A stretch of DNA of 64,000 nucleotides from Candidatus Aquitaenariimonas noxiae. GTDB taxonomy: Bacteria > Omnitrophota > Gorgyraeia > Aquitaenariimonadales > Aquitaenariimonadaceae. Position numbers and translations under genes: made by a program. The notes beneath the pieces were generated by a model. It saw only the letters and a program-made list of their open reading frames with translations, did not search any database and was not told the origin of the DNA. Positions 42,204 through 64,000 of this stretch are shown here, piece by piece. The stretch is from NCBI GenBank assembly GCA_002780005.1, contig PEWV01000075.1:14133-78132 (forward strand), read 5' to 3'. Position 1 is the first letter of the stretch. Every line of letters starts with the position of its first letter.

Positions 42204-43577
42204 TTATTTTTTTTCCAGGATGCATTTTGACATTCTACCGCAGGGTTTGGCCGGGTAATTCCCATCAAAACAGGCCGTGCAGAATTCCTCTTTCGGGATC
42301 GGCATGGATTTGAGCATACCTTCTTTGCTTAAATACTCAAGGCTATCCAGACCGATAAAATCTTTTATCCATTTTATGCTGTGATTCGACGCTATTAATT
42401 CCTTTTTAGTCGGGAAATCTATACCGTAAAAACACGGGAACCTAAGCGGCGGACAGCTTACCCGCATATGGACTTCTTTAGCTCCAGCTTCCCGCAGTGT
42501 CTTTACCCTGACCCTGCTCGTTGTCCCGCGGACTATAGAATCTTCTATAATAACTGTGCGCTTATTTCTTAGGACATCTTTTATCGGATTAAGTTTTACC
42601 CTGACTCTGAAATCCCTTATAAACTGTGACGGCTGAATAAATGTCCTCCCAACATAATGGTTCCTTATCAAGGCTGCTTCATATGGGATCCCGGATTCTT
42701 CTGAAAAACCTAAAGCGGCGTAATTCCCCGAATCGGGCACAGGCATCACGAAATCGCCTTTAGCGGGAAATTCTTTTGCCAGCTGCTTGCCCAAACGCTT
42801 CCGGGTTAAATAAACATTCTGGCCAAAAATATTGCTATCGGGCCTGGCAAAATATATATATTCAAATATGCAAAACGAATGTTTCTTTCCAGAAAAAGGT
42901 TTTTGAGACTCTATGCCTTTCTTGCTTATAAAAACTATCTCACCTGGCTCAACTTCCCTGATATATTCCGCATTTATCAAGTCTAGCGCGCAGGTTTCGC
43001 TCGCCAATACATAGGCATCGTCCAATTTACCGATACAAAGCGGCCTCCATCCGCCCGGATCCCTTGCTCCGGCCAAGTATCCGTTAAGCATGAGTACAAG
43101 CGAATACGCCCCTTCAAGCCCGGATAAGGCGTCAACAAGATTTTGCCTGTGGTCCGGGCTTTGTGATTTAGCTAAAAGATGAACTATTGTTTCGGAATCC
43201 ATTGTAGTCTGAAAGATAGAACCCCTACCTTCCATATCATGTCGCAGCTTGAAAGCATTTGTAAGGTTACCGTTATGAGCGATAGCTATATGCCCCTTAC
43301 TATGGTTTACAGAGAACGGCTGGATGTTTTTGGAAATGCTTGAACCTGTCGTTGAATAGCGAACATGTCCTATCGCTACGTCGCCGCGCAGCGACTTTAT
43401 GCTTTTTTCATCAAATACATCTCCGACCAGGCCCATACCCTTATGGGACATGATCTTTTTTTCGCTTGAGACAACTATGCCTGCGCTTTCTTCGCCGCGA
43501 TGCTGGAGCGCGTAAAGGCCCAGATAAGTAAGCCGCGCCGCGTCTTTATGCCCATATATACCGAATATCCCGCACAT
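42204..43577 (-). CDS. purF: amidophosphoribosyltransferase
   Basis: MCGIFGIYGH Ntn-Cys start; PRT domain; C-terminal Fe-S Cys. Confidence 0.9.
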   Translation of the reverse strand: MCGIFGIYGHKDAARLTYLGLYALQHRGEESAGIVVSSEKKIMSHKGMGLVGDVFDEKSIKSLRGDVAIGHVRYSTTGSSISKNIQPFSVNHSKGHIAIAHNGNLTNAFKLRHDMEGRGSIFQTTMDSETIVHLLAKSQSPDHRQNLVDALSGLEGAYSLVLMLNGYLAGARDPGGWRPLCIGKLDDAYVLASETCALDLINAEYIREVEPGEIVFISKKGIESQKPFSGKKHSFCIFEYIYFARPDSNIFGQNVYLTRKRLGKQLAKEFPAKGDFVMPVPDSGNYAALGFSEESGIPYEAALIRNHYVGRTFIQPSQFIRDFRVRVKLNPIKDVLRNKRTVIIEDSIVRGTTSRVRVKTLREAGAKEVHMRVSCPPLRFPCFYGIDFPTKKELIASNHSIKWIKDFIGLDSLEYLSKEGMLKSMPIPKEEFCTACFDGNYPAKPCGRMSKCILEKK

Positions 43578-43581
43578 ACAC

Positions 43582-44394
43582 TTATATCCTCACAGGAATG
43601 CCTCTATCCTTAAGGTATTCCTTTGCCTCTCTGATCGAATATTTCCCGTAATGAAAAATAGATGCCGCAAGAACGGCATCAGCCCTGCCTGTTGTTAGCG
43701 CCTCATAAAGATGTTCTAAATCCCCTGCGCCGCCCGATGCTATAACCGGGATATTTACGGTTTCTGATATAGCCTTTGTCAGCTTCAGGTCATAACCCGC
43801 TGTCGTTCCGTCCATATCCATGCTGGTAAGCAGGATCTCGCCGGCCCCTGATCGTTCTGCCTTTTTTGCCCATTCGACCGCGTCAAGGCCGACCGGTTTT
43901 CTACCGCCGTAGGCATATACTTCCCATTTCTTTTTTTTGCTATGGACTATGGACTGTGGGCTGTGGACTAACTTCGCGTCTATGGCAACCACTATGCACT
44001 GGCTGCCAAATTCCTCGGATGCTTCTTTAATCAATGTAGGGTTTTCTATTGCCGCTGTATTTATAGAAACCTTATCGGCCCCAGATTTCAAGAGCTGTCT
44101 TATATCGCTTATATTTCGAATGCCGCCTCCAACCGTCAAAGGTATAAAGACCTGCTCTGCTGTTTTTATGACCACATCTAAAAATGCCTGGCGTTTTTCA
44201 ACGCTTGCTGTTATGTCTAAGAATACTACTTCGTCCGCGCCTTCTTTGGAATAGAAGGCTGCTGTCTTGACAGGGTCTCCCGTGTCTTTAAGGTCCAGGA
44301 AATTAATACCCTTCACAACTCTTCCGTCTTTTACATCCAGGCATGGTATTATTCTTTTAGTCAGCCCCGTTAGAAACTTAGCTCTTTCTACCAT
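43582..44394 (-). CDS. hisF: imidazole glycerol phosphate synthase cyclase subunit HisF
   Basis: [16 protein letters not shown] ... full HisF barrel. Carries the N-terminal extension [13 protein letters not shown] and an internal [14 protein letters not shown] segment encoded by heptamer repeats. Confidence 0.9.
43941..43968. repeat. 4 x 7-nt tandem repeat T(A/G)TGG(A/G)C inside hisF, next to a T8 run (43931-43938)
   Basis: TATGGAC TATGGAC TGTGGGC TGTGGAC. Confidence 0.8.
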
Positions 44395-44466
44395 AATATT
44401 TATTCTCCATCCCCATTAAGAAAACATAAGCCATATTCAGCAAACCAAAACGTTTCTAACGGGGTT
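44365..44466. repeat. inverted pair of the CCCCGTTAGAAAC / GTTTCTAACGGGG motif bracketing the hisF start codon
   Basis: 13-bp perfect inverted repeat: 44366-44378 (inside hisF codons 6-10) and 44452-44464 (5' UTR). Confidence 0.8.
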
Positions 44467-45085
44467 AGCATAGTTTGCAAAAATTCTCCAAAAATTTAAG
44501 GCCCAATTCTGAGCTTTTTTCTGGGTGAAACTGTACGCCCCAAATATTATCCTTATTTACTGCAGAGGCGAAATCTTTCCCATACTTGGTCGTGCCGATT
44601 ATAATTCCTTTATCATCCGGATCAACATAATAGGTGTGAACGAAGTAGAAATATGAATTATCAGCTATGTCTTCAAACAGCTGTGGACTGTGGACTGTGG
44701 ACTGTGGACTTTTTATTTTAACCTCGTTCCATCCCATATGCGGCGTCTTCAATTGCAGATCAAATCTCTTAACTTTTCCTTTTAATATATCGAGGCCTCT
44801 ATGAGTGCCATGCTCCTCGCTTTCCGTAAATAATAATTGCAAACCAAGGCATATGCCTAAAAAAGGTTTGCCGTCTTTAATGATCCTGGTTATAGCAGGC
44901 AGGATATCTAATTCCGTAAGGTTAGCCATGGCCCTGGCAAAGGCGCCTACCCCGGGCAGAACAACGGCTTTAGCGTCGCTCAAATCATTAGGATTATCCG
45001 TAACCTTTGCCTGGGCGCCTACCATCTGGAAAGCTTTACTGACGCTTTTCAGGTTTCCCATGCCATAGTCGATTATCGCTATCAT
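44465..45085 (-). CDS. hisH: imidazole glycerol phosphate synthase glutaminase subunit HisH
   Basis: Class I GATase with GICLGLQLL catalytic Cys and HPEKS. Confidence 0.9.
   Translation of the reverse strand: MIAIIDYGMGNLKSVSKAFQMVGAQAKVTDNPNDLSDAKAVVLPGVGAFARAMANLTELDILPAITRIIKDGKPFLGICLGLQLLFTESEEHGTHRGLDILKGKVKRFDLQLKTPHMGWNEVKIKSPQSTVHSPQLFEDIADNSYFYFVHTYYVDPDDKGIIIGTTKYGKDFASAVNKDNIWGVQFHPEKSSELGLKFLENFCKLC
44682..44709. repeat. perfect 4 x 7-nt tandem repeat TGTGGAC inside hisH (encodes SPQSTVHSPQ)
   Basis: 44682-44709 is TGTGGAC x4 exactly. Confidence 0.9.
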
Positions 45086-45088
45086 ATA

Positions 45089-46629
45089 TTACTCCCACTC
45101 TATCGTAGAAGGCGGCTTGGATGAAATATCATAAACAACCCTGTTGATGCCTTTGACTTCATTTATAATACGGCTCGATATGGTTTCAAGCAACTCGTAG
45201 GGAAGCTTGGCCCAGTGAGCGGTCATTGCGTCTTCGCTCGTCACAGCCCTTACCGCAACCACATTCTCGTAAGTCCTCTCATCACCCATAACCCCTACTG
45301 TTTTTATAGGTAACAATACGCAGAATGACTGCCATAATTTTCTATAAAGGCCACTTCGTTTTATTTCATCTATCAATATCCAGTCGGCTTCCCGTAAAAG
45401 GTCAAGCCTATTCTTAGTGATCTTGTCTATTACGCGAACCGCAAGGCCCGGCCCCGGGAAAGGCTGTCTATAAATAGCTTCTTCCGGCATACCTAGTTCT
45501 TTTCCGAGTAGCCTTACCTCATCTTTAAATAAATCCTTAAGAGGCTCTATCAGTTCAAAATCCATGCGGGAAGGAAGTCCTCCTACATTGTGATGTGTCT
45601 TAATGGTCGCCGAAGGCCCGCCTATCGGGGATTTTGATTCTATTACATCAGGGTATAACGTGCCCTGGGCTAAAAATTTTATTTTCCCCATTTTTTTTGC
45701 TTCTTTCTCAAAAATTCTTATAAATAACTTGCCTATGATCTTGCGTTTTTTCTCAGGGTCCGTGACCCCTTTTAAACCGTTCAAAAAAACTTTACTCGCG
45801 TCGATTACTTTCAGGTTTATACGAAAGTTTTTTCTGAATCTTTTCTCGACAAGCTCGGACTCATGTTTGCGCAACAGCCCGTTATCGATAAAGATGGCGA
45901 CAAGATTTTTACCTATAGCCTTATGAAGAAGCACTGCCAACACCGAAGAATCCACGCCGCCGCTTAACCCGCATAGAACTTTTTCACCGTTTATCCGGTT
46001 TCTTAATTCTTTAATCGTGTTTTGCGCAAAAGAATACATATCCCACGATGGCTTGCATCCTGCTATATTAAATAGAAAATTTTTCAATATGATCTTCCCT
46101 TTTGGCGTGTGAACGACCTCGGGATGGAACTGAACCCCGAAAAAGTTTTTTTCAGGATGTTCCATAGCGGCGACCGGAGAATTTGAGGTGGAGCCTATTA
46201 CCCTAAAGCCCTTTGGCAATTTTGTTATCCTGTCTCCGTGGCTCATCCAGATCGTCTCTTTCGAAAGTAAATCTTTAAACAATGTCTTTTTTGATCTAAT
46301 GCTAAGGGTCGCCTTTCCATATTCCCGTGTCTTAGCCTTAGCAACATTCCCTTCCAATAATTTGGCCATAAGCTGCGCGCCGTAGCATATGCCGAGAACG
46401 GGTATGCCCATATTAAAAATATCCTTATCACATACGGGAGATTTTGCTGCGGTAACGCTGGCAGGGCCGCCTGACAAAATAACCGCTTTTGGTTTGCGAG
46501 CCGAAAGTTCATCCGCCCCTATATTGTAAGGCACTATTCCAGAGTAAACCTTATGCTCGCGTATCCTGCGGGTAATAAGATGGGTGTATTGAGAGCCAAA
46601 ATCTAAAATCGCTATCCAGTCTCTATCCA
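45089..46629 (-). CDS. guaA: GMP synthase (glutamine-hydrolysing)
   Basis: GATase domain (ILDFGSQYT, catalytic GICYG) plus ATP-PPase SGGVDSSV and C-terminal dimerisation domain. Start revised to GTG at 46629 (GGAGGA SD). The ORF-track N-terminal extension overlaps carB. Confidence 0.88.
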
Positions 46630-48287
46630 CGGGACTCGTCCTCCATTTCGTAAGTAGAGTAAAAATACGGCGTATAAGCTTCGAACTCGGCGCCGCAGGT
46701 ATCAACCAGCTTATATGTTGTTTTTATGCCAAATTTGTTGCGCAACTTTCGAATATTATCTTCTTTTGTGCTGACTAAATTTGCGATCTGCTTATCGCTA
46801 AAACCAAACTGTTTTGCTTCGAAAAGCAAGCTCTTAAACATATTGGTATTATATTTACTTTTTGCTTTTTTGATCTTCTTCTCAAGGTCCACTATCTCTT
46901 CAATGTTATGAAGGAACCATCTGTCTATTTTTGTATGCTCGTAGATTTCATCTATATTCATCTTATTTTTTATGGCATATTTTATATAAAAAATCCTCTC
47001 CGCATTCGGGGTTTTTAATCTATCTATAAGTTGTTCGCGTGATACATCAAATTTTAAATCTTCCAAACCGGACACGCCTATCTCAAGTGACCTTAACCCC
47101 TTTTGCAGCGACTCTTTAAAAGTCCTTCCGATAGACATAGCCTCGCCTACGGATTTCATAGATATCGTGAGCGTTGAATCCGCCTGGGAGAATTTTTCAA
47201 ACGTAAAACGAGGAATTTTAACGACACAATAATCGATAGTAGGCTCAAAACATGCCGGCGTTTCCTTCGTAATATCATTCGGGATCTCATCAAGCGTATA
47301 CCCCACGGCCAGTTTCGCTGCTATCTTTGCAATAGGAAACCCCGTTGCCTTGGAAGCCAGGGCCGAACTCCTAGAGACCCTGGGATTCATTTCTATGACT
47401 ACCATTCTACCACTATCGGGGTGAACGGCAAACTGAATATTTGAACCTCCGGTCTCTACGCCGATCTCTCTAATGCAGGCTATCGCGGCATCGCGCATCT
47501 TTTGATATTCCCTATCCGTGAGGGTCTGCACCGGGGCAACTGTAATTGAATCGCCGGTATGGACCCCCATTGGATCAAAGTTTTCTATTGAACATATGAT
47601 AACAACATTATCTCTTTTATCTCTCATCACTTCAAGCTCGAATTCTTTCCAGCCGATAACCGATTCCTCTATTAATATCTCGCTTATCATGCTCGACTCA
47701 AGGCCTCGTTGGGCAATTTTCTTAAACTCCTCTATATTATATGCCACGCCGCCGCCTGTACCGCCCAGTGTGAAGCTCGGACGCACAATTACGGGGAAAC
47801 TGATCCTGCTTATTATCTCGTATGCTTCTTTTAACGTATGGGCTTCTCCGCTTTGGGGCAGATCAAGTCCGATCTTCTGCATTGCTTCTTTAAAAAGCTG
47901 CCTATTTTCGGCCTTTTTAATAGCTTTAATGTTTGCGCCTATAACCTCTACGCCATATTTATCAAAAATTCCGTTTTCGGCCACTTTCACGGTGACATTC
48001 AAGGCCGTCTGGCCTCCGAGCGTAGGCAAAATAGCGTCCGGTTTTTCTTTTTCTATTATTCTTTCAACTATTTCCGGAGTAATAGGCTCAATATATGTTT
48101 TATCCGCCATAACCGGGTCCGTCATTATGGTAGCCGGGTTACTATTCAATAAAACCACTTCAAATCCTTCCGACCTTAATACCTTGCACGCCTGGGTGCC
48201 GGAATAGTCAAATTCGCACGCCTGGCCTATTATGATAGGACCGGAACCGATTATGAGAATCTTTTTTATGTCTGTACGTTTTGGCAT
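46623..48287 (-). CDS. carB: carbamoyl-phosphate synthase large subunit, N-terminal half only (split carB)
   Basis: 554 aa starting [24 protein letters not shown]. Ends ...[20 protein letters not shown], just before the second synthetase domain would begin. guaA follows immediately. Confidence 0.85.
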
Positions 48288-48289
48288 TT

Positions 48290-48366
48290 ATTTTAGCGTT
48301 TAGGGGTTAGCGTCTAGCGTTTAGTACTTTTACTAATCGCTAGCCGCTAATCGCTAGTCGCTGATC
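48290..48366. repeat. compound palindrome of TAGCG-containing repeats in the carA-carB intergenic region
   Basis: TTAGCGTTTAG / TTAGCGTCTAG direct repeats, a CTAGCGTTTAGTA-CTTT-TACTAATCGCTAG inverted core (48314-48343), then TAATCGCTAG(C/T)CGC x2. Confidence 0.7.
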
Positions 48367-48369
48367 CTT

Positions 48370-49458
48370 TCACTTACGCTTTCTTGTTTTCTCCATCAAT
48401 TTGACAAACTCATCAAACAAATACTCCGCGTCATGGGGGCCGGGCGAGGCCTCGGGGTGAAATTGCACGGAGAAAATCGGAAGCTTCTTATGCCTCATCC
48501 CTTCCGATGTTTTATCATTCAAATTTATATGCGTAGTTTCCATCTCTTTTTTATTTAAAGAATCTATATCAACACAAAAACCGTGGTTTTGTGCCGTAAT
48601 AGCTATTTTGCCTGTCTTTAGATCCTTTACCGGATGATTGGCGCCATGATGCCCGAATTTTAACTTGTATGTTTTTCCGCCAAAGGCCAATCCCAGTATC
48701 TGATGTCCGAGACAGATACCGAATATCGGACATTTCCCTACCAAGTTTTTCACGGTTTCAACTACGTAAGGAACTCCTTCCGGGTCCCCGGGGCCGTTTG
48801 AAAGCAGGATCCCGTCAGGCTTAAAAGCCATGATATCTCCTGCGCCTGTCTTTGCCGGGACAACTGTGACCCGGCAATTTCTTCCAGCCAGCTCCCTTAA
48901 TATATTAAATTTAACTCCACAATCTATTACCACAACTTTATATTTTCCTTTGTTGCTCCATTCCCTTACTTTATTAAGGCTGACTTCTTTAACCAGATCC
49001 CTGCCGATAAGACCTTTGGAGGATCTCGCCTTCTGTATCAAACTTTTATCATCCAAGTCTTCGGTGGATAAGACCGCTTTCATCGCACCTTTTAACCTTA
49101 TATGCCTTGTAAGCGCGCGGGTGTCTATGCCTTCAATGCCTATTATGTCGTTTTGTTGAAGGTATTCCTCCAGATCCAACTGGGAGCGCCAATTGCTTGA
49201 AATGCGGCTACGCTCTCTTACTACAAATCCTTCCACAAACGGTTTGCGCGATTCCATATCATCGCTGTTAATGCCGTAATTACCTATCAACGGATATGCC
49301 ATTGTAACAATCTGGCCCTTGTAGGAGGGGTCCGTCAGGATCTCCTGATAACCGGTCATTGAGGTATTAAAAACCACTTCTCCGTATGTGGTTCCTTCGG
49401 CCGCGAACGACTTGCCTTTGAATATCTTGCCATCTTCTAAAACCAATATAGCATTCAT
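48370..49458 (-). CDS. carA: carbamoyl-phosphate synthase small (glutaminase) subunit
   Basis: 362 aa; GICLGHQ catalytic Cys; class I GATase. Confidence 0.9.
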
Positions 49459-49459
49459 A

Positions 49460-53318
<3,859 letters not shown>

Positions 53319-53319: not shown

Positions 53320-54015
53320 TTATTTACCTTTCAGCCATTTCAGTGTAGATTTAAAAATTAAGGAGCCGTGATCGGACCCAAGTAGTTTCTCAGCGCTTCT
53401 TTCCGGATGAGGCATCATCCCTAATACATTACCCTGTTTATTTATAATACCGGCAACATTGCCTATGGCTCCATTTGGGTTAAATCTATCGCCAACCTCT
53501 CCTTGTTCGCTGCAGTAACGAAAAACAATCTGCTTATTTTCTGTAAGGTTTTTAAGCCCTTTTGTATCGATATAGTAGTTACCCTCATTATGGGCTATTG
53601 GGATCTTTAAAATTTGATCCCTTTTGCCCAAATTTGTAAATGGCGTAGCATTGTTTTCTAACTTTATATGTACATGCTTACAAATAAAATGAAGGTTTTT
53701 GTTTCTTAGCATCGCGCCGGGTAGCAGGCCGGCTTCCAGTAATATTTGAAAACCGTTACAAATTCCAATAACCAACCCTCCTCTATGGGCAAATCTAGTC
53801 ACCGATTTCATCACAGGAGAAAATCGAGCCACCGCGCCAGTTCTCAGATAGTCGCCATAACTGAACCCCCCCGGTAATACCAAACAATCATATGCATCCA
53901 CTTTGGTATTTTTGTGCCAGATATATTCCGCAGGCTGCTTTAAAATATCTCTGATCGCATAGAAGCAATCTTGTTCGCAATTAGAACCTGGAAAAACTAT
54001 AACACCGAATTTCAT
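53320..54015 (-). CDS. purQ: phosphoribosylformylglycinamidine synthase glutaminase subunit PurQ
   Basis: GICNGFQ catalytic Cys; HPER. Confidence 0.9.
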
Positions 54016-54263
54016 TTATCACCTTTCATCTTAACGTTATAATCTTCTGTTATTGGATTAGCTAATAATTTCCTGCACATATTATCGATTTTCTTTTTAG
54101 CCTTCTCTTTATTTTGGCAATCTATTTTAATAGTAATAAATTTACCGATTCGGACTTCGTCTAAACCTTTATACCCCATTGACTCTAATGCGTGTTTAAT
54201 GGTTAAACCTTGCGGATCAACTATTTTTTTCTTCAAAGTAATGTAAATTTCTGACTTTAACAT
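54012..54263 (-). CDS. purS: phosphoribosylformylglycinamidine synthase subunit PurS
   Basis: 83 aa; overlaps the purQ start. Confidence 0.85.
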
Positions 54264-54356: not shown

Positions 54357-55931
54357 CTAACCTGAAAAACATACAATTTTTTGCGATACTACATCCGATA
54401 CTATTTTTAAGTCCCTGCCTTCTGCATCGTAGACGCTGACAACGTCGTTATATGCGGCTGCCTTAGGCATTAGTTTCATAAATAAATTTTTAGACTTTGA
54501 GAACCATTTATTATTCAATGCGACTTTTTCTTTTTGAGGAAATAACGCAACATAGAATATGTTCGTCTCCACAAGGTCCTGGAAAAAATGCGTTCCGAAG
54601 GATAATTCAGGCATGAGATTTCCGCCGGAAAAAGCGACTTCCACAAGCACGGCTATATTGTTTATCTCGGCAAACTTGACCGGTACGCCCAGGGACGGGG
54701 TTGTCGTGCCCCATCTCCCCGGCCCCATAAGAAGTGTTGGTAATTTTTCTCTGTCTTCTATATTTTTATTCAGCGTTCCTACTATGCGCGCGACTTCATA
54801 CTGGTCGGACAATACAAGCTTACCGTACTTCTCCGGATCGACACATATAATTCTTTTGATTTCCTGAGATATATTGCCGCCTAAAAAATATCCGTGCGAT
54901 TCAAAAAGTATCTTTTCCCTGCTTATGCTGCCAGGTATATCAACCTTACAGCCGATCCTTCTTGTCTGCAGGGGGCGGCATTGCAGCAGGTTTATCTTGA
55001 AGGCGTTGTTCTTTGTAAAGTTTACGGTAAATTCTATTTCAATAGGATAGCGGTAATTCTTTTCGATCGTCACAAGTATTTTCCTGAAGGAATCTGCCAA
55101 CGTATTATAGTCGAATACCTTGTCGAGTGTCAATATCCAATATTCCTTATCTCCCGCGCCTCGATCGTTCATCATGCGCATGGATTCATAATCTTTTACC
55201 GCCACGCGGCTTGTATCTCTGTAAGTCTTCTCGCTTACAAGTCTTTCGAACGGAACAGTTTGGAAAACATTTTCTTTTGTATTTATGAGATCTACTTCGT
55301 GCTGTGAGAATTTCCTTAAATCATCCTTCTCCGCGTACGGCCTTCTTAAAGGATCGTCAAGCGCAACCATTCTCGGGTAATCACCCTCTACGCGATTGAC
55401 CGCCCTTGTGCCTAACCCGAACACCAGTCTAAGCATACCTGCCTTCGGGTCCATATTTTCATTCCAGACATATGTATTATGGGACACGCCGACGCCGGCA
55501 AGGTCCGGAAAAAAATAATTTTTATGATGGGCCCCGGAAACGCGCTGCACCAGGAGCGCCATCTGTTCATCTAATTTATCCAAACCCCTCTGTTTTCTGT
55601 ATACGAGGGCATCTTCGCTCATCGTGCTTGCATAAATTCTTTTTACGGCCTCTGCAAACTGTATATATCTCTGCTCCGGCGTGCCCTGATTTGCCAAAAA
55701 TATGCTTTCGTATTTACCGGCAAATGCGTTCCCGAAGCCATCCTCCAGAAGAGAGCTCGAGCGTATTATAATAGGAGATGAGCCGAAATACTCCACGATC
55801 TGCTGAAAGCTTTCCATTATATCATCGGAAAATACGCCGTAAAGCATCTTTTCTTTTAAGATCTTTGCGATATTAAAATATCCATCCTCGGTCTTCTGCT
55901 GCATACGCAGTTTCCACCATCGATTTTGCAC
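54357..55931 (-). CDS. PEP/pyruvate-binding (PPDK_N, ATP-grasp-like) domain protein, C-terminal portion; likely continuous with the upstream ORF via frameshift
   Basis: IIIRSSSLLEDGFGNAFAGKYES matches the VRSSATAED..SFAGQ signature of the PEP synthase/PPDK N-terminal domain. GTG start overlaps the upstream ORF by 59 nt in another frame. Confidence 0.6.
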   Translation of the reverse strand: MQNRWWKLRMQQKTEDGYFNIAKILKEKMLYGVFSDDIMESFQQIVEYFGSSPIIIRSSSLLEDGFGNAFAGKYESIFLANQGTPEQRYIQFAEAVKRIYASTMSEDALVYRKQRGLDKLDEQMALLVQRVSGAHHKNYFFPDLAGVGVSHNTYVWNENMDPKAGMLRLVFGLGTRAVNRVEGDYPRMVALDDPLRRPYAEKDDLRKFSQHEVDLINTKENVFQTVPFERLVSEKTYRDTSRVAVKDYESMRMMNDRGAGDKEYWILTLDKVFDYNTLADSFRKILVTIEKNYRYPIEIEFTVNFTKNNAFKINLLQCRPLQTRRIGCKVDIPGSISREKILFESHGYFLGGNISQEIKRIICVDPEKYGKLVLSDQYEVARIVGTLNKNIEDREKLPTLLMGPGRWGTTTPSLGVPVKFAEINNIAVLVEVAFSGGNLMPELSFGTHFFQDLVETNIFYVALFPQKEKVALNNKWFSKSKNLFMKLMPKAAAYNDVVSVYDAEGRDLKIVSDVVSQKIVCFSG

Positions 55932-56967
55932 TATATAAGAATAAAATATATCCGAACCTATCTATATAGAACGAGTCGTGCAGTTCCGAGAGTTTTTTCC
56001 AATCAAGAGATTTATCTTTCGATAGTATTTTTCTGGCCAAAAGCATGCCTACGCTTTTCCCTCCGATAAAACCCGTTCCTATCAGCCTGTATTTTATATC
56101 TACGAGCTCCTCAAGCGAAAAATTTTGTATCGCCAAGGATAAGATCTTCTTATTCTTGGTCACCATTATGCTCGATAGCTTCTTTATCATATCTTTTATC
56201 TTCTCTTTTTTCGCAGGACTTTTTACAAGCTCCTCCGCATCAATGAATAAGCGGTCCCAGTAATCGTGATTTCTCTTGGCGTTCTCCGCTCCTTTTTCGC
56301 GAATATAAGAGAGTATTTTTACGGCGTTAACGCTGTCGGTAATGGGTATAAACCTTTCGTTCTTCTTTTGGTGCGGAAGGAACATTGTCGGCGAATACCG
56401 GTTCCATACTTTAAGCGGGTGTATATACAAGCTACCCTCGCAATGGTACACATCCATCAAGAGCTGAGTAGTTTCGCGTATGCTGGCTATGGACTTGAAG
56501 GAATGGTTATTGCGCAATATAGAAAAATATGTAATAGTCTTAAGTTCGTAAAGGTACGGGCATGTAACCATAAAAAAGTTTCCTGTCATAAGATCGGTAG
56601 CCCACGCCGAAAGGAGTTCTGACAGGCAATCAAACACATAATACGCCCCTTCGCCTTCCTGGGTAATAATATTATTTACCCTTGTGGTAAAATATTCGAA
56701 TCCGGCATTGGCATTAAGTTCGTATCGTTTTATCTTTTTTGAGGGCTTAAGCAGTTCCTTGTGTGATGCAAACCGCATGTATATAACTTTCTTATTCTCG
56801 CCAAGCGCCTGACGCACAAACGGCGTTACAAGGTCAATATAATCTTTTATATCGTCTATCTGCCAGACTACATTGTCCCCGGTCCTCAAGCCCGTGATCA
56901 CGCTATCCAAACCTTTTATGCCTGTACTTATCATATCAATAACCCTTCGCCCTTCGATTCCGCACAA
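55873..56967 (-). CDS. N-terminal portion: degenerate RecA/KaiC-like domain followed by the start of the PPDK_N domain (GGKSVGMLLARKIL)
   Basis: TGIKGLDSVITGLRTGDNVVWQ resembles KaiC/RadA N-terminus but lacks Walker A. C-terminal FIGGKSVGMLLARKI matches the LVGGKNASLGEM start of PPDK_N, which continues in the downstream ORF. Confidence 0.5.
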   Translation of the reverse strand: MCGIEGRRVIDMISTGIKGLDSVITGLRTGDNVVWQIDDIKDYIDLVTPFVRQALGENKKVIYMRFASHKELLKPSKKIKRYELNANAGFEYFTTRVNNIITQEGEGAYYVFDCLSELLSAWATDLMTGNFFMVTCPYLYELKTITYFSILRNNHSFKSIASIRETTQLLMDVYHCEGSLYIHPLKVWNRYSPTMFLPHQKKNERFIPITDSVNAVKILSYIREKGAENAKRNHDYWDRLFIDAEELVKSPAKKEKIKDMIKKLSSIMVTKNKKILSLAIQNFSLEELVDIKYRLIGTGFIGGKSVGMLLARKILSKDKSLDWKKLSELHDSFYIDRFGYILFLYSAKSMVETAYAAEDRGWIF

Positions 56968-56972
56968 TAGTT

Positions 56973-58439
56973 TTACATAGACGGCAAATTGCTTTCGCCT
57001 ATCAGATATTTATCAATACAATAGGCCGAACGCCTGCCTTCGGATATGGCCCAAACTATTAGCGATTGTCCTCTTCTGGCGTCACCTGCCGAAAATATAT
57101 TCTTAATAGAAGTTATATATTTTTCATCTGTTTTGATGTTGCCGCGATTGTCTAATTCCAGACCCAGATCATTCAGAAGACCTCCGCGCTCGGGATGCAT
57201 GAATCCTATCGCGAGGATCACCAGATCAGCCTCTATTTCAAACTCTGTGCCCGGGATCTCTTTCATGACCTGACAGTTTTTCCCATTTTCTTTAGAAAAT
57301 TCAATTTTAACGCACGATACTTTTTTTACGCAGCCTTTTTCTCCGATAAATCGTTTTGTCAACACCGCCCAATGGCGCTCGCCGCCCTCTTCGTGGCTGG
57401 TGGAAGTTTTCAAAATAAAAGGATACCTTGGCCAGGGATCGCTAGCGGTCCTGCATTCGGAAGGCTTAGGAAGCACTTCTATCTGCACAACGCAGCTCGC
57501 CCCCTGCCTGTGCGCAGTCCCGACGCAATCCGCCCCGGTATCTCCGCCTCCTATCACAAGAACTTTCTTACCCTTGGCGTCTATGGGTTCGCCCCCAGAA
57601 CGCTTTTCACCAGACACTCTGCAATTGGACTGCATTAAATAATCCATGGCAAAATATATTCCCTTTAGTTCCCTGCCTTCAATAGTCAAATCCCTGGGAA
57701 TGCGTGAACCTATGGCGATACAAATAGCATCAAACTCCTCTTTTAATTTTGAAATCGGGTAATCAGGCCCCACATTAAGGCCTGTTTTAAATTTAATTCC
57801 TTCTTTTTCTAAAATCTTGACCCTTCTCTCGATTATCTTTTTTTCCAGTTTAAAATCAGGTATACCGTAACGTAAAATACCTCCGACCTTATCATCTTTT
57901 TCAAACACCGTTACCGAATGGCCTGCCTTATTAAGCTGGCCTGCGCACGATAATCCTGCAGGGCCGGAACCTATGACAGCTATTTTCTTTCCCGTGCGGA
58001 TTTTTGGAGCCTTTGGCTTGATAAGACTTTCCTTAAAGGCATATTCTATTATAGACAGCTCGTTTTCTCTTATAGTTACAGGATCATCTGTTAAGCCCAG
58101 CACGCAGGCGTATTCACAAAGCGCTGGGCATAATCTGCCAGTTATCTCAGGCAGGTTATTTGTAGCTTGAAGGAGGTCAAGCGCGGCTTCCCATTTACCT
58201 TTAAACATATAATCGTTCCATTCAGGAATGTAGTTCCCTACCGGGCAACCCCAATGGCAAAACGGCGTCGCGCAGTCCATGCAGCGCGAAGCTTGTTCCT
58301 GCGACTGCTTCTCAGGGCACATTTTTGAAACATCCTTAAAGTCTTTGACGCGCTCGCAGACTTCTCTGTAAAGAGTTTTTTCTCTTCCCAATTTTAAGAA
58401 TCCTCGCGGATCACCCATCTGATGCCTCCACCAAATCAA
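56973..58439 (-). CDS. gltD: glutamate synthase (NADPH) small subunit
   Basis: N-terminal Fe-S Cys cluster; FAD/NAD(P) Rossmann motifs (IAVIGSGPAGL, VLVIGGGDTG). Confidence 0.85.
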   Translation of the reverse strand: MIWWRHQMGDPRGFLKLGREKTLYREVCERVKDFKDVSKMCPEKQSQEQASRCMDCATPFCHWGCPVGNYIPEWNDYMFKGKWEAALDLLQATNNLPEITGRLCPALCEYACVLGLTDDPVTIRENELSIIEYAFKESLIKPKAPKIRTGKKIAVIGSGPAGLSCAGQLNKAGHSVTVFEKDDKVGGILRYGIPDFKLEKKIIERRVKILEKEGIKFKTGLNVGPDYPISKLKEEFDAICIAIGSRIPRDLTIEGRELKGIYFAMDYLMQSNCRVSGEKRSGGEPIDAKGKKVLVIGGGDTGADCVGTAHRQGASCVVQIEVLPKPSECRTASDPWPRYPFILKTSTSHEEGGERHWAVLTKRFIGEKGCVKKVSCVKIEFSKENGKNCQVMKEIPGTEFEIEADLVILAIGFMHPERGGLLNDLGLELDNRGNIKTDEKYITSIKNIFSAGDARRGQSLIVWAISEGRRSAYCIDKYLIGESNLPSM

Positions 58440-61400
58440 GCTTTTCCTCTACCTTTATACCTTCCAGGATGCGTTTATATTCTATCGGTATAACTTTGAC
58501 AAATTTTTTGAGTTCTTCCCGCATGTTGCCCGTAATTTTTTTTGCTTTCTCACTTTTTGTATATTTAAAGTGATTATGAAGCAAGTGATATATCACATCT
58601 TTATCTCCTTCCTTCATTCCTTCGAGCTTTATCATATCCATGTTGCACTTGTCTTTGAACGTTCCATCTTCATCGTATACATACGCTATTCCGCCTGACA
58701 TGCCTGCGGCAAAATTCCTGCCCGTCTTGCCAAGGATAATTATTCTTCCGCCTGTCATATATTCGCAACCATGGTCGCCGACACCTTCCACAACAGCATG
58801 GAGCCCTGAATTCCTCACGCAAAATCTTTCTCCGGCAACGCCGCATATATAAGCCTCTCCGGAAATGGCCCCATAGAAGGTCGTATTGCCTATAATAATA
58901 TTCTCGTCCGGTTTATATTGCGCCGTTCTATCCTGATAAATGATGATCTTTCCGCCCGATATCCCTTTTCCAACATAGTCATTGGCCATTCCTTCCAGTT
59001 CAAGCGTAATACCTTTTGCCAGAAACGCGCCGAAACTTTGCCCTGCAATACCCCTGAATTTGCACATTATGGTATCTTCTAAAAGGATACCGTCGCCGCA
59101 TTTTCTCGTAACTTCACCGCTCAGCATTGTGCCGGTAGCCCTGTTAGTATTGTTAATTTCGAGTGAAAGTTTGACCGGTTTATTTTTCTCAAATGCGTCT
59201 TTGCACAATTTAATCAGTTCTTTATCGAGAACTGTATCAAGCCCACTTTCTTGTTTGGACTTGCAATACCGTCCTACGCTTTCAGGCAGGTCCGGTTTAT
59301 AAAGGATCTTGGAGTAATCTATTTCCTTAACTTTTAAAGGAATAAGGTTTTTGTTCACATGAAGAAGGTCCGTTCTCCCTATCATCTCGTCGATGGTCCG
59401 CACCCCTAAGCTTGCCATTATCTCCCGAAGTTCCTGCGCTACAAATCTAAAATAATTCACTATATATTCCGGCCTTCCGCTGAAATGCTTCTGTAAAATA
59501 TCATCCTGCGTAGCCACGCCGACCGAACAGTTGTTTAAATGGCAGTGCCTCAGCATGACGCATCCCATCACAATAAGCACGGCCGTGCAAAAACCGTACT
59601 CTTCGGCCCCCAGCAAAGCCGCGATAGCGACATCACGACCCGTGCGCATCTGCCCATCAGTTTGTATCCTGGTCCTTGAACGCAGATTATTAAGGACAAG
59701 CGTCTGGTGCGTCTCGGAAAGGCCCAGTTCCCAAGGAAGTCCGGCATATCTTATAGAGCTCAAAGGAGATGCCCCGGTCCCTCCGTCTCCGCCTGAAATC
59801 AGGATCATATCTGCCCGGCCTTTTGCCACACCGGCCGCAACGGTCCCAACGCCTATTTCTGATACGAGCTTCACGCTTATCCGCGCCGTTGGGTTAACAT
59901 TTTTTAGATCAAAGATCAGCTGTGCGAGGTCTTCTATAGAATATATATCGTGATGGGGCGGAGGCGATATTAAAGTAACGCCCGGAGTCGTATATCTGGT
60001 TCGCGCAATTATTTCACTAACCTTGTGTCCGGGCAGCTGGCCACCCTCTCCGGGTTTTGCGCCTTGAGCAATCTTTATTTGTATCTCATCCGCATTAACA
60101 AGATAATTCGTCGTAACTCCGAACCTTCCCGAAGCGACCTGCTTTATGGCGCTCCGCCTGGAATCGCCGTTAGGCAGGGTTATAAATCTATTAGGGTCCT
60201 CACCGCCTTCTCCTGTATTAGACTTGCCGCCTATTCTGTTCATAGCGATAGCTATTGTTTCATGCGCCAATCTGCTTATCGAGCCGAAGCTCATAGCCCC
60301 TGTCGCGAATCTTCTCATAATATTCTCGATAGGCTCAACCTCATTGATAGGGATCGCTTTTGTTTTTTCGGAAGAAAATTTAAACAAGCTCCTTAATGTC
60401 GTGGGATTTGCCGACTGATCGTTTATGATATTGGCGAATTCTCTATATCGATCATAGCTATTCTCGAGTGTAGCGTCCTGCAAGGCATGGATCGTCTCCG
60501 GGTTCCAAAGGTGGGATTCGCCGTCCTTTTTCCATTGGTAGATCCCGCCGCTTGACAAATAAGGACTGTCTATGTCTCTTTCGTAATAAGCGCTCATGTG
60601 TCTCGATATGTACTCATCCGCAATACCGCTAAGGCCAACTCCTCCGATCCGCGACACAGTCCCCGTAAAATATTTATCTATAAATTCATTATCTAGGCCC
60701 AAAGCTTCAAATATTTGGGCGCCGCGATAACTTCTAAGAGTGGATATTCCCATCTTTGATAATATTTTTAATATACCGTCCGTTAAGGCTTTATTGTAAT
60801 TCTTAAGCGCGCTTTTAAGTTCTAGGCGGATCTCTTTTTGCGTTATAAGATATTCTATTCCTTCATACGCAAGATACGGATTAACGCAATCGGCTCCGTA
60901 ACCAAAAAGCAAGGCAAAATGATGCACCTCTCTTGGTTCGGCACTTTCAATTATTATCGCGACTTGTGAGCGTATTGTCTTCCTTACAAGATGCTGATGG
61001 ACAGCGCTTGTAGCCAAAAGTGAAGGCAGGGCAATATTATCTTTACCCGAACCCCGGTCGCTCAATATTATAAAAGAATATCCCTTTTCGATAGCATATT
61101 CGGCTTCAAACGAGATCCTCTCCAATGCCCGCACAAAGCCTTCCCTGCCGCTTGCCGCATCAAAAAAGGTGTATATTGTTTTTGTTTTAAAACCGTTTAT
61201 GCTTATATCGCGTATTCTTTCAAGCTCATCATCCGTTAATATAGGGTTTTTTACCATAAGTTTATGACTATGCTTCGGAGTCTCCTCTAATATATTCTTT
61301 TCAGGGCCTATGAAACTTTCAAGACTCATGACAAGCTTCTCCCTTATGGGATCTATGGGGGGATTGGTCACTTGCGCAAATAATTGTTTAAAATAATTAT

Positions 61401-62952
61401 ATAAAGCTTGAGGCTTCTTCGATAAGAAGGCATGAGGCGTGTCATTACCCATGGAGCCTACGGGTTCTTTTCCGTCTTCAGCCATAGGCTTTATGATCAC
61501 TTTGACATCTTCCCGGGAATAACCAAAGGCCTTGAGATAGGATACTATATCTTCGGATTTTTGACTTTTCACACTACTACTGGTAAGTTTTCCAAGATCA
61601 ACCATGTTCTCGGCATTCCATTCTTCATACGGACAACGGGCGGATACGCTCTTTTTTATCTCAGAATCATGCACAATAGAGCCCAATTCTGTATCTATAA
61701 AAAAGATCTTACCCGGCTCAAGTCTCCCGGAAACCTTAATGCTAGAGGGCTCTATGTCGAGAACGCCGACTTCGGACGCCATAACCACAAAATCGTTTTT
61801 GGTTACGATGTAACGGGCAGGGCGCAAACCATTCCTGTCAAGCACGGCCCCAATACATCTTCCGTCGGTAAAGGCTACTGCCGCCGGGCCGTCCCACGGT
61901 TCCATAAAACAGGCGTGATATTTGTAAAACTCTTTGAGTTCTTTGTTCATAAATTTATTGTGCTCCCAGGCCTCCGGGATCAGCATCATCATAGCGTGTT
62001 CAAGGGGCCTGCCGGATAACACTAAAAGTTCAAAGAAGTTATCGATCGTGGCCGAATCGCTTCCGCCTTCAACGATAACAGGCTTCGCCTTCTCTATATC
62101 CGTGCCGAATAATTCGCTTGCGATCAACCTCTCTCTCGCGCTCACCCAATTTATATTGCCGCGCAGGGTGTTTATTTCCCCGTTATGAGCTAAAAACCTA
62201 AAGGGCTGCGCCAGATCCCAGGTCGGAAACGTATTGGTGCTGTAACGGGAATGTACTAACGAAATAGCGCTTTCAATATTTTCATTTTTCAGATCAATGA
62301 AAAAATCTCCAAGCTGACTCGGCGTCAATAACCCTTTATAACTCAACGTCCTGGATGAAAGGTTGGTAATATAAAAAAATAATTTCTGCTTTAGCTCTGA
62401 TGCGCGGATAGTTTTTTCTATTTGCCTGCGAATAACATATAGCTTGCGCTCAAAGGAAAGCGCATCCTTGGCATTTTTACCCTGCGCTATAAAGATCTGG
62501 CGGATCACGGGTTTTGTCTCTTTTGCGGTTGTGCCTATTATAGAATCATTTACAGGCACATCCCTCCATCCGAGTATTTTTTGCCCTTCTTCCTCTACGA
62601 TTTTATCAAATATGCCTATGCAAAAATTCAGTTCCTGCTTATCCGTAGGCAGAAAGATGAGCCCCGTACCGTAAGTGCCGGGATCGGGCAGGGAAACCCC
62701 TGCCCGACGGCATTCTTCCGACAAAAACTTATGAGGGATCTGGATAAGGATACCAGCGCCGTCCCCTGTATTAGGATCGGCGCCAACGGCTCCGCGGTGG
62801 CTCAAACGGTTTAGGACCTTAAGCCCCTGCCTTATAATTTCGTGGGATCTCCTACCTTTAATATCACAGACAAATCCCACGCCGCAGCTGTCATGTTCGA
62901 ACTGCGGGTCATAAAGCCCCTGTTTATGAGGAAACCGGTTATGCATCGTCAT
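58411..62952 (-). CDS. gltB: glutamate synthase large subunit
   Basis: 1513 aa; Ntn Cys (HDSCGVGFV), central, FMN and C-terminal GXGXG domains. Confidence 0.9.
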   Translation of the reverse strand: MTMHNRFPHKQGLYDPQFEHDSCGVGFVCDIKGRRSHEIIRQGLKVLNRLSHRGAVGADPNTGDGAGILIQIPHKFLSEECRRAGVSLPDPGTYGTGLIFLPTDKQELNFCIGIFDKIVEEEGQKILGWRDVPVNDSIIGTTAKETKPVIRQIFIAQGKNAKDALSFERKLYVIRRQIEKTIRASELKQKLFFYITNLSSRTLSYKGLLTPSQLGDFFIDLKNENIESAISLVHSRYSTNTFPTWDLAQPFRFLAHNGEINTLRGNINWVSARERLIASELFGTDIEKAKPVIVEGGSDSATIDNFFELLVLSGRPLEHAMMMLIPEAWEHNKFMNKELKEFYKYHACFMEPWDGPAAVAFTDGRCIGAVLDRNGLRPARYIVTKNDFVVMASEVGVLDIEPSSIKVSGRLEPGKIFFIDTELGSIVHDSEIKKSVSARCPYEEWNAENMVDLGKLTSSSVKSQKSEDIVSYLKAFGYSREDVKVIIKPMAEDGKEPVGSMGNDTPHAFLSKKPQALYNYFKQLFAQVTNPPIDPIREKLVMSLESFIGPEKNILEETPKHSHKLMVKNPILTDDELERIRDISINGFKTKTIYTFFDAASGREGFVRALERISFEAEYAIEKGYSFIILSDRGSGKDNIALPSLLATSAVHQHLVRKTIRSQVAIIIESAEPREVHHFALLFGYGADCVNPYLAYEGIEYLITQKEIRLELKSALKNYNKALTDGILKILSKMGISTLRSYRGAQIFEALGLDNEFIDKYFTGTVSRIGGVGLSGIADEYISRHMSAYYERDIDSPYLSSGGIYQWKKDGESHLWNPETIHALQDATLENSYDRYREFANIINDQSANPTTLRSLFKFSSEKTKAIPINEVEPIENIMRRFATGAMSFGSISRLAHETIAIAMNRIGGKSNTGEGGEDPNRFITLPNGDSRRSAIKQVASGRFGVTTNYLVNADEIQIKIAQGAKPGEGGQLPGHKVSEIIARTRYTTPGVTLISPPPHHDIYSIEDLAQLIFDLKNVNPTARISVKLVSEIGVGTVAAGVAKGRADMILISGGDGGTGASPLSSIRYAGLPWELGLSETHQTLVLNNLRSRTRIQTDGQMRTGRDVAIAALLGAEEYGFCTAVLIVMGCVMLRHCHLNNCSVGVATQDDILQKHFSGRPEYIVNYFRFVAQELREIMASLGVRTIDEMIGRTDLLHVNKNLIPLKVKEIDYSKILYKPDLPESVGRYCKSKQESGLDTVLDKELIKLCKDAFEKNKPVKLSLEINNTNRATGTMLSGEVTRKCGDGILLEDTIMCKFRGIAGQSFGAFLAKGITLELEGMANDYVGKGISGGKIIIYQDRTAQYKPDENIIIGNTTFYGAISGEAYICGVAGERFCVRNSGLHAVVEGVGDHGCEYMTGGRIIILGKTGRNFAAGMSGGIAYVYDEDGTFKDKCNMDMIKLEGMKEGDKDVIYHLLHNHFKYTKSEKAKKITGNMREELKKFVKVIPIEYKRILEGIKVEEKLDLVEASDG

Positions 62953-62963
62953 TAAAACTCTCC

Positions 62964-64000
62964 CTACAGAATCGGTAGATACTTTTCAAGCTCATACTGT
63001 GAAACCTGGATCCTGTAATCATCCCATTCTTTCTTTTTTAACTCAACAAACCTTGGGAATATGTGGTCTCCCAATATTTTTTTAACAAGTTTACTTTCTT
63101 CGGTTATTGCTATTGCCGCGCCAAGACTGTCAGGCAATGTTTCTATGCCTTTTTCTTTTCTTTCGATATCTGTCAAATGGTACAGGTTCTTATCCATAGG
63201 GGCCGGCGCTTTATACCTTTTTTCTATACCCTCAAGGCCTGCGTGAAGCATTGCCGCAAAGGTAAGATATGGGTTGCAAGCCGGGTCGCAGGCCCTGAAC
63301 TCACATCTTGTTGCCTTTTCTTTTCCCGGATAGTAAAGCGGTACCCTTATAAGCGCGCTCCTGTTCCTCCTGCTCCAGGCTATATAGACTGGCGCTTCAT
63401 AACCAGGCACAAGCCTCTTGTAGGAGTTTACCGTCTGGGCAAATATTGAACATATCTCTTTTGAATGTTTCAGGAGGCCCGCTATATAGTAATGGGCTGT
63501 CTCGGAAAGGCCATCTTTTGCCTTAGGGTCAAAAAACGTATTCTTCTCGCCCTTAAACAGGGACTGGTGCGTATGCATACCGGAACCGTTCTGACCGAAG
63601 ATAGGCTTTGGCATAAAAGTAGCGTATACGCCGAATTTATTGGCTATTTCTTTAACGGCCACCCTGTATGATATAACATTATCGGCCATCTTTAGGGCAT
63701 CGTCATATCTCATGTCAACCTCATGCTGGGAAGGGGCAACTTCATGGTGCGAGTACTCTATACGCACGCCCATCTTCTCAAGAGCCAGTACCGTTTCTCT
63801 TCTGAGATCGCTTGCCACATCGAGAGTCGTCAGATCGAAATACCCGCCTTTATCCAAGATACCTGTCCCCTGATCGTTCTTGAAATAGAAGAACTCCAGT
63901 TCCGGCCCGACATAATAATGGTCATAACCCATTTTCTTTGCCCGCTCAATGGCTCTTTTCAAAACGTAACGCGGATCGCCTTCATAAGGCGTTTTGTCCG
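62964..64000 (-). CDS. glnA: glutamine synthetase type I (5' end beyond window)
   Basis: Frame stays open upstream of the ORF-track TTG to the window edge (..DKTPYEGDPRYV..). Catalytic-domain motifs follow: GPELEFFYF, NGSGMHTHQSLF, adenylylation-loop region. Confidence 0.85.
   Translation of the reverse strand, partial: DKTPYEGDPRYVLKRAIERAKKMGYDHYYVGPELEFFYFKNDQGTGILDKGGYFDLTTLDVASDLRRETVLALEKMGVRIEYSHHEVAPSQHEVDMRYDDALKMADNVISYRVAVKEIANKFGVYATFMPKPIFGQNGSGMHTHQSLFKGEKNTFFDPKAKDGLSETAHYYIAGLLKHSKEICSIFAQTVNSYKRLVPGYEAPVYIAWSRRNRSALIRVPLYYPGKEKATRCEFRACDPACNPYLTFAAMLHAGLEGIEKRYKAPAPMDKNLYHLTDIERKEKGIETLPDSLGAAIAITEESKLVKKILGDHIFPRFVELKKKEWDDYRIQVSQYELEKYLPIL

Follow-up and report, generated by a model that had tools for sequence, protein, structure and literature searches.

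A recurrent, rearranging gene neighbourhood centred on glutamine in Candidatus Aquitaenariimonas noxiae and other Omnitrophota

Background

Bacterial operons normally group the steps of a single pathway, as in purEKBCSQLFMNHD of Bacillus subtilis or carAB, guaBA and hisGDCBHAFI of Escherichia coli, and nitrogen assimilation likewise has operons of its own, composed of amtB-glnK (with or without glnA) and of gltBD. Here we describe a string of genes in a stretch of 64,000 nucleotides (nt) from the uncultured groundwater bacterium Candidatus Aquitaenariimonas noxiae (Omnitrophota; assembly GCA_002780005.1, contig PEWV01000075.1, positions 14,133 to 78,132 of the forward strand; hereafter the window), in which the glutamine-dependent steps of four or five pathways sit behind the genes of glutamine synthetase and glutamate synthase (GS/GOGAT). 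The upstream half of this string is the familiar nitrogen-assimilation module, co-oriented and packed as in the amtB-glnK(-glnA) and gltBD operons. Unlike these operons, the string adds ten genes of glutamine-amidotransferase systems, which belong to purine, pyrimidine/arginine and histidine synthesis, and a gene for a protein with a PPDK_N domain. As in the pathway operons of B. subtilis and E. coli, purS-purQ-purL, carA-carB and hisH-hisF are adjacent, whereas hisA is missing between hisH and hisF, and neither guaB nor purM, purN or purD is present in the window's string.

Gene order can also be maintained at a higher level. Lathe, Snel and Bork reportedly described in 2000 so-called über-operons, gene neighbourhoods that are conserved above the level of the operon, and classical examples group genes of one process, e.g. 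the ribosome or the flagellum. The locus studied here resembles über-operons in that a coherent gene set is kept across species while order and membership shift, but differs from the classical cases in that its members have in common a co-substrate of four or five separate pathways. Our preferred reading, to which we assign a probability of roughly 0.6, is that the region represents an über-operon-like gene neighbourhood, specific to this lineage and organised around glutamine, with a core of producers and a set of recruited consumers. Full-text literature searches returned no description of a GS/GOGAT cluster with amidotransferases of several pathways, be it in Omnitrophota or elsewhere. The components are all known; the principle of a shared co-substrate, kept through rearrangement, is the unusual part.

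With respect to control, the closest described systems are regulons governed by ANTAR proteins. These are typically nitrogen regulons including glnK and amtB (PMC3369931; PMC2995071), and the targets of ANTAR proteins elsewhere include glnK, amtB and the genes of glutamine and glutamate synthases (PMC2995071; PMC3369931).

Results

Gene content and packing of the glutamine string

Fourteen genes occupy positions 42204-64000 of the window, all on the minus strand. They are listed here in the order of transcription, with NCBIfam scores against the curated cut-off of the respective model, which every enzyme exceeds; lengths are in amino acids (aa).

62964..64000, minus strand: glnA, type I glutamine synthetase (567.7 vs cut-off 429, scored on the full-length copy in the public contig L007)
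58411..62952, minus strand: gltB, glutamate synthase large subunit, 1513 aa (1794 vs 1047)
56973..58418, minus strand: gltD, glutamate synthase small subunit, 481 aa (637 vs 448)
54357..56934, minus strand: PPDK_N-domain gene, 857 aa when undisrupted (from a domain search; frameshifted in the window)
54012..54263, minus strand: purS (102 vs 75)
53320..54015, minus strand: purQ, glutaminase subunit of phosphoribosylformylglycinamidine (FGAM) synthase (324 vs 212)
51057..53318, minus strand: purL (954 vs 648)
49460..51064, minus strand: pyrG, CTP synthase, 534 aa (857 vs 308)
48370..49458, minus strand: carA, carbamoyl-phosphate synthase glutaminase subunit (538 vs 307)
46623..48287, minus strand: carB N-terminal half, 554 aa (941 vs 599, covering model positions 1-545 of 1058)
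45089..46630, minus strand: guaA, GMP synthase, 513 aa, GTG start (807 vs 400)
44465..45085, minus strand: hisH (238 vs 105)
43582..44394, minus strand: hisF, 270 aa (389 vs 295)
42204..43577, minus strand: purF, final gene of the string (535 vs 350)

The NCBIfam scans thus return all fourteen genes, in the order proposed by a first-pass annotation of the sequence. GlnA makes glutamine, and GltBD, PurLQS, PyrG, CarAB, GuaA, HisHF and PurF use its amide nitrogen; the identities obtained here agree with the earlier statement that every named enzyme besides the PPDK_N protein belongs to one of these two categories. Only glnA is incomplete, being cut by the end of the window, which contains its C-terminal 344 codons; in L007, a public contig identical to the window, it encodes 443 aa.

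The junctions from glnA to purF measure, in gene order, 11, -8, 38, 93, -4, 1, -8, 1, 82, -8, 3, 70 and 4 nt. Gaps of 0-93 nt, as first annotated, are therefore essentially right, apart from overlaps down to -8 nt. Nine of the 13 junctions overlap or span at most 11 nt, which fits translational coupling. Chance cannot account for ten consecutive genes of glutamine-amidotransferase systems behind glnA-gltBD; the association recurs in relatives as well.

A conserved core and a shuffled tail in related genomes

The comparison covered 80 loci around PPDK_N homologues in species-representative genomes, in which the cluster genes of the window were located by tblastn; 27 of these species possess a PPDK_N protein at least 70% identical to that of the window, and the other 53 loci are more distant. 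Among the 27 species the segment amtB-glnK-glnA-gltBD-PPDK_N is nearly invariant: gltD lies directly upstream of the PPDK_N gene in 24 of the 25 species with enough upstream flank, usually preceded by amtB-glnK-glnA-gltB. Downstream of the PPDK_N gene, a gene of a glutamine-amidotransferase system follows directly in 15 of the 22 species with sufficient flank, and the number of tail genes, out of ten, that the 10-kb flank shows ranges from 0 to 7.

The relatives display at least eight arrangements. They include pyrG-carA-carB-purSQL-purF, carA-carB-purSQL-pyrG, carA-carB-purF-pyrG, carA-pyrG-carB-purF and pyrG-purF, and further gltBD-purSQL-pyrG-PPDK_N, purF-pyrG-gltBD-PPDK_N and carA-carB...PPDK_N-gltBD. 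Additional members also occur, namely gdhA in one relative and, in another, wbuX (N-acetyl sugar amidotransferase) followed by hisH/F-like genes. When metagenomes were scanned with HisH, the matches listed were mostly ordinary hisH-hisA operons of unrelated bacteria, the informative loci being L092, L143, L149 and L159. Among the matches listed were the order purL-hisH-hisF and, on unassigned metagenome contigs, the orders carB-glnA-PPDK_N-asnB-hisH-hisF-guaA and FGAM synthase-hisH-hisF-guaA.

In 22 of the 53 distant loci (from Planctomycetota, Aegiribacteria and others), genes for an ANTAR protein, amtB, glnK, glnA, gltB or gltD are found within 10 kb of the PPDK_N gene, a common layout being ANTAR-PPDK_N divergent from amtB-glnK-glnA-gltB. 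The window organism harbours the largest version, among the loci compared, of a recurrent, rearranging, glutamine-themed neighbourhood. The view that the grouping follows a shared substrate and not the pathways is upheld by the partial clusters of the same genes in relatives. The synteny check that had been suggested along with this view came out in the same sense, with partial clusters instead of dispersal into pathway operons (24/25 for the core and 15/22 for the tail).

The upstream extension and the amtB leader

Exact-protein look-ups retrieved the same DNA from several groundwater metagenome assemblies, at least 99.96% identical to the window over 15-20 kb; one of the samples from which these contigs come is that of SRR1534154. 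In these public contigs the string begins beyond the window end, where a gene for a GAF-ANTAR regulator, a gene for a 529-aa Glu_synthase-domain (GltB-like) protein, amtB and glnK precede glnA. The GAF-ANTAR gene (L007 4000-4743) lies about 2.2 kb upstream of amtB, and its ANTAR domain is recognised with an E-value of 1e-21, while the best matches of its GAF domain are the GAF domains of PtsP and NifA. The amtB gene itself (L007 6931-8185) is split into open reading frames (ORFs) of 167 and 254 aa at a run of seven G, at about L007 7393-7400, and this split is identical in all five public assemblies from the gltB look-up.

Between the Glu_synthase-domain gene and amtB (L007 6610-6935) there is a terminator-like hairpin, followed by the amtB promoter and leader. 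The promoter (L007 6684-6711) matches the sigma-70 consensus perfectly, with TTGACA, a 16-nt spacer, TATAAT and a TG extension, and the 220-nt leader (L007 6712-6935) contains three hairpins, each with a U-run, as well as repeated CGAAGA motifs (fold z -5.4). Matches to a sigma-54 promoter motif were no commoner than chance. From the perfect promoter, the three terminator-like hairpins and the likeness of the GAF domain to those of PtsP and NifA we infer control by nitrogen status.

The arrangement is like that of known ANTAR nitrogen regulons (GnfR of Geobacter, PMC2995071; survey in PMC3369931) in that an ANTAR gene adjoins the cluster and a promoter and terminator-like hairpins precede amtB. 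It is unlike them in that the sensor is a GAF and not a receiver domain, and in that the hexaloop hairpin pair was not found in the leaders. ANTAR-type antitermination would nevertheless be the most likely entry point of cluster control, since the GAF-ANTAR gene is adjacent and the amtB leader is rich in terminator-like structures. The glutamine riboswitch that had been suggested as a possibility upstream of glnA found no support, there being no Rfam match to one in the window or in L007; likewise, no T-box, PyrR site or purine riboswitch was detected by Rfam in the window or the upstream contig. The single Rfam match in L007 at E-values up to 1 is to the small RNA sau-30; it is sub-threshold (36 bits, gathering score 70) and falls on the opposite strand, upstream of the cluster, and we take it as a chance hit.

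One transcript or several

Promoter-like sites were scored out of 12 against the sigma-70 consensus of E. coli. No promoter-like site and no convincing intrinsic terminator was found in any gap between glnA and purF, and the terminator-like sites in the string are at chance level (23, vs 19.6 +/- 4.4 in shuffled sequence). The intergenic promoters of this genome resemble the E. coli consensus (12/12 for amtB; 11/12 each for the YHS-domain gene, the Rrf2 gene and a site at 36425-36397), which makes three sites inside coding regions noteworthy. The strongest of the three is given here together with the site that follows the string:

55104..55133, minus strand: sigma-70-type site inside the PPDK_N gene, TTGACA, 18-nt spacer, TATAAT (12/12)
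42167..42195, minus strand: promoter-like site ahead of the YHS-domain gene, TTGACA, 17-nt spacer, TATCAT, TG extension (11/12)

The site inside the PPDK_N gene lies about 750 nt before the stop of that gene, points towards purS, and could act as an internal promoter for the genes from purS onwards. Estimated from base composition, about 0.01-0.02 perfect sigma-70 matches are expected by chance per 20 kb; moreover, the position of this one coincides with the boundary between conserved core and variable tail. The two other coding-region sites are located inside glnK, upstream of glnA (11/12), and inside hisH (44598-44625; 10/12). The site at 42167-42195 comes directly after the purF stop and opens the next themed block, devoted to oxidative stress.

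The first-pass annotation had proposed a single transcription unit for nitrogen distribution. The tight packing and the gaps without promoters or terminators agree with this proposal, but in view of the strong promoter-like sites inside PPDK_N, glnK and hisH a single unit is not established. As far as the sequence allows a judgement, co-expression is plausible and a single transcript unproven.

The two internal hairpins and a dispersed repeat

Two internal RNA elements had been proposed within the string:

48295..48362, minus strand: carA-carB palindrome with a period of 7 nt (AGCGAYT four times, then AAACGCT-like four times), within the 82-nt gap
44365..44464, minus strand: inverted-repeat element at the hisH-hisF junction, composed of CCCCGTTAGAAAC, 74 nt and GTTTCTAACGGGG, with perfect 13-bp arms

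As strong hairpins both are genuine (z -4.7 and -4.1), but as conserved regulators they do not hold up, being absent or inserted when compared with relatives. The carA-carB hairpin (dG -30.1 kcal/mol, z -4.7) has no U-run behind it. Its rejection as a conserved RNA follows from its absence in 15 of 15 relatives: 14 of these have no gap between carA and carB, the two genes abutting or overlapping, and the remaining one possesses a 94-nt gap without such a hairpin. The repeat unit of the palindrome was found only in contigs of this population.

The inverted repeat at hisF encloses the ribosome-binding site, the ATG and the first 10 codons of that gene, and folds with its flanks at a dG of -34.4 kcal/mol (z -4.1); HisF carries an N-terminal extension of 9 aa that is encoded within the element. 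Its 10-nt core, CCCCGTTAGA, occurs in nine exact copies in the window, eight of which form four inverted pairs. These pairs define a dispersed element of the form CCCCGTTAGA...TCTAACGGGG, in which 23-106 nt of variable interior separate the cores; the window copies are located at 10900-11023, 12061-12184, 41622-41670 and, at hisF, 44366-44463. Two of the pairs enclose the start of a pseudopilin gene, and another follows the YHS-domain gene; in all, three of the four window copies bracket a translation start. Where the element lies at a pseudopilin gene, its 3' arm supplies the codons for LTG in the prepilin leader (..LTGFTLIEL). Outside the window the element is present in other lineages, at L084 5684-5782 (between amtB and glnK), L066 8453-8529, L070 18072-18148 and L168 4663-4710. 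Direct TTTA or TAAA flanks several of the copies, as would suit a miniature mobile element; alternatively, the dispersed repeat may be a binding site. A likeness to the attC sites of integrons was discounted, the core motifs reading in the opposite order.

The relative L092 has directly overlapping hisH and hisF genes, and its HisF begins differently from that of the window, which indicates that the window element is an insertion that now supplies the translation start of hisF. A role of the helix as a dedicated regulator of hisF was therefore rejected, the helix being a dispersed repeat inserted at a junction that overlaps in L092. Judged from these comparisons, both hairpins of the string are apparently recent, species-specific insertions and not parts of a conserved mechanism. 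The structure in the gap between the PPDK_N gene and purS is not significant (z -2.1).

As a separate observation, a good terminator-like hairpin, GATGCCGTTCTTGCGGCATC followed by TATTTTT (43661-43680, minus strand), is located within the 3' end of hisF, some 80 nt short of the stop codon and ahead of purF.

The PPDK_N-domain gene

The label of a phosphoenolpyruvate (PEP)-binding-domain gene, initially given to the gene between gltD and purS, is not borne out, the domain found being the ATP-binding PPDK_N domain (residues 290-658 of the 857-aa protein). Its treatment as the odd exception in the string was likewise a misjudgement, for no other gene accompanies gltBD as constantly in the lineage, gltD being directly upstream in 24 of 25 species. 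The C-terminal region has no domain assignment, and the N-terminal ~290 aa gave an insignificant match to MEDS alone (E 0.18). Neither PEP-utilizers nor PEP-utilizers_C domains were detected in the protein by domain search. The domain set of a PEP synthase or pyruvate phosphate dikinase is thus incomplete, the phosphohistidine swivel and the PEP/pyruvate-binding domains not having been detected. A sequence search of the PDB gave weak matches (best E-value 0.001) of residues 353-474 to the ATP-binding part of PEP synthase, and an AlphaFold2 model from a shallow alignment of 12 similar sequences failed, with a mean predicted local distance difference test (pLDDT) score of 38. Across diverse Omnitrophota the sequence identity of the protein amounts to 76-82%, and its homologues are annotated as Candidatus Omnitrophota. 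With more than 8000 members the family is a very large one, found at more than 570 places in the GTDB species collection.

The gene is broken in the window by a short duplication:

55962-55965, minus strand: 4-bp tandem duplication ATAG, absent from the four compared assemblies L007-L010

The duplication splits the gene into two ORFs (55873-56967 and 54357-55931). Four independent, near-identical assemblies of the same population without it encode a single 857-aa protein, and the duplication is either a strain-specific pseudogene mutation or an assembly error.

A doubled homologue of 1472 aa was noticed in Geobacter sp. OR-1 (L172 8001-12419), where it lies between a gene of the alpha-amylase family and pgi (glucose-6-phosphate isomerase), with no adjoining nitrogen genes. 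This sugar-gene setting suggests that distant members of the PPDK_N family may serve in glucan or sugar metabolism rather than in nitrogen metabolism.

Discussion

Gene identities, tight packing, the upstream extension and the conservation of the gene set despite changes of order are matters of direct observation, and the region appears to be a neighbourhood that selection maintains, that rearranges, and that has glutamine at its centre. In the model that we favour, the core of amtB, glnK, glnA, gltB, gltD and the PPDK_N protein would make and recycle glutamine, with the RNA-binding GAF-ANTAR regulator encoded just upstream. The genes of the tail (for PurSQL, PyrG, CarA and CarB, GuaA, HisHF and PurF) would have been recruited behind this core from pathway operons in Omnitrophota, whereby expression of the glutamine consumers would be tied to that of the producers and to nitrogen status. 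Expression could rely on a single long read-through RNA, although two to four overlapping transcripts are more likely.

Several points weigh against this model. All ORFs of the window are on the minus strand and its GC skew is negative throughout (1-64000), so that the co-orientation pointed out in the first-pass annotation is real but not special to the string. The window also consists of further themed blocks, namely type II secretion or type IV pilus-like genes (~6.8-15.7 kb), sensor kinases (15.7-22 kb) and oxidative stress (~26-42 kb), ahead of the glutamine genes (42-64 kb); the whole 64 kb being co-oriented, packed and themed, long strings of this kind are therefore a general habit of this genome. 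Of 22 close relatives whose downstream flank is long enough, 6 show no amidotransferase gene within 10 kb, and the relatives were viewed within 10-kb flanks only, which limits the gene content that is visible. Several independent transcripts, starting from the sites inside PPDK_N, glnK and hisH, are possible. Rfam gave no match at gathering score in the window, and none with an E-value up to 1 in 41000-64000. Finally, a canonical dual-hexaloop target of ANTAR proteins (two small neighbouring hairpins with stems of at least 4 bp, an A first and a G fourth in the loop, one of them overlapping the terminator) was not found in either leader, where a relaxed hexaloop rule yielded nothing convincing; the ANTAR step of the model is accordingly one that we infer.

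Three other explanations deserve consideration. A strict single polycistronic operon for nitrogen distribution, with one upstream control point and tuning by the carA-carB and hisF hairpins, would account for the short or overlapping gaps without promoter or terminator from glnA to purF, for two hairpins far stabler than shuffled sequence (z -4.7 and -4.1) and for a promoter followed by a terminator-rich leader upstream of amtB. The proposed tuning, however, is contradicted by the absence of the carA-carB hairpin from 15 relatives, with a repeat unit confined to this population, and by the nature of the hisF helix as a dispersed repeat copy at a junction that overlaps in L092; together with the consensus-grade promoter-like sites within coding regions and the lack of an Rfam match, this leads us to regard the strict operon as unlikely. 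The string could also be neutral: in a strongly strand-biased genome made up of long co-directional strings, housekeeping genes of biosynthesis would merely chance to be neighbours, without any selection for the glutamine theme. We hold this to be very unlikely, even though the window has a single gene direction and a uniformly negative GC skew, neighbouring blocks are just as long and tightly packed, and the tail is variable to the point of being absent in 6/22 close relatives with enough flank. What a neutral origin leaves unexplained is that the members are restricted to makers and users of glutamine, that the same gene set appears in at least eight orders, that other lineages add asnB, wbuX with hisH/F-like genes, or gdhA, and not random housekeeping genes, and that the pathway neighbours hisA, guaB and purM stay outside the window's string.

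The third alternative is physical assembly, in which co-translated proteins would form a glutamine metabolon, possibly organised or regulated by the PPDK_N protein. The evidence in its favour is indirect and comprises the 76-82% identity of this protein across diverse Omnitrophota, the almost invariable attachment of its gene to the end of the glnA-gltBD core, and the nitrogen-assimilation or ANTAR genes within 10 kb of it in 22/53 distant loci. Yet the AlphaFold model of the protein failed (pLDDT 38), its gene is frameshifted in the window, and the doubled homologue of Geobacter sp. OR-1 has an alpha-amylase-family gene and pgi for neighbours instead of nitrogen genes, which leaves the metabolon highly improbable.

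To return to the preferred reading of a glutamine-centred neighbourhood akin to an über-operon, it would imply that selection has preserved a glutamine gene set throughout a phylum in spite of repeated rearrangement. Should the genes be co-regulated, they would provide a clear natural case of gene order built around a shared co-substrate, and would bear on the question of how operons form, be it through co-regulation, balanced demand for one metabolite or channelling. The cluster also marks the conserved PPDK_N protein and the GAF-ANTAR regulator as candidate components of nitrogen control in uncultured lineages. Speculatively, the two proteins might even constitute an unrecognised control module for nitrogen status, in place of the proteobacterial GlnD, GlnE and NtrBC, at the head of a glutamine-centred regulon in Omnitrophota and partly in Planctomycetota and others, with synthetase and amidotransferases expressed, and possibly assembled, as one unit; we consider this idea improbable.

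The truncated carB and the surroundings of the string

The carB N-half reaches as far as position 545 of the 1058-position model, which is where the internal duplication has its boundary, with guaA overlapping its stop by 8 nt, and the C-terminal half was not found within the 64-kb window. The same truncation is present in the relatives L016 and L028, with guaA or purS directly after it, while in most relatives the second half is contiguous. The large subunit of carbamoyl-phosphate synthase is split in Aquifex aeolicus and Methanocaldococcus jannaschii, and the carB of the window is like these split genes in stopping at the internal-duplication boundary; unlike the Aquifex-type pair, only an N-half is seen in the window, and the halves are contiguous in most relatives. 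A second carB copy, 49% identical to the N-half of the window, occurs in the relative L013 (18588-22562) together with gdhA (NADP-specific glutamate dehydrogenase).

The oxidative-stress block that follows the string comprises the YHS-domain gene, a DUF3786 gene, and genes for a thiol peroxidase, an Rrf2 regulator, rubrerythrins, a desulfoferrodoxin and a protein of the flavorubredoxin family (FprA-like). Between the YHS-domain and DUF3786 genes lies a cysteine-rich ORF of 16 codons (41480-41530, minus strand; MCKTCGCQDKKKPKPK) with a strong ribosome-binding site. Beside the thiol peroxidase and the Rrf2 regulator, positions 38568-40277 encode a protein resembling enzyme I of the phosphotransferase system (PTS), with the PEP-utilisers_N, mobile and C-terminal domains and without a GAF domain.

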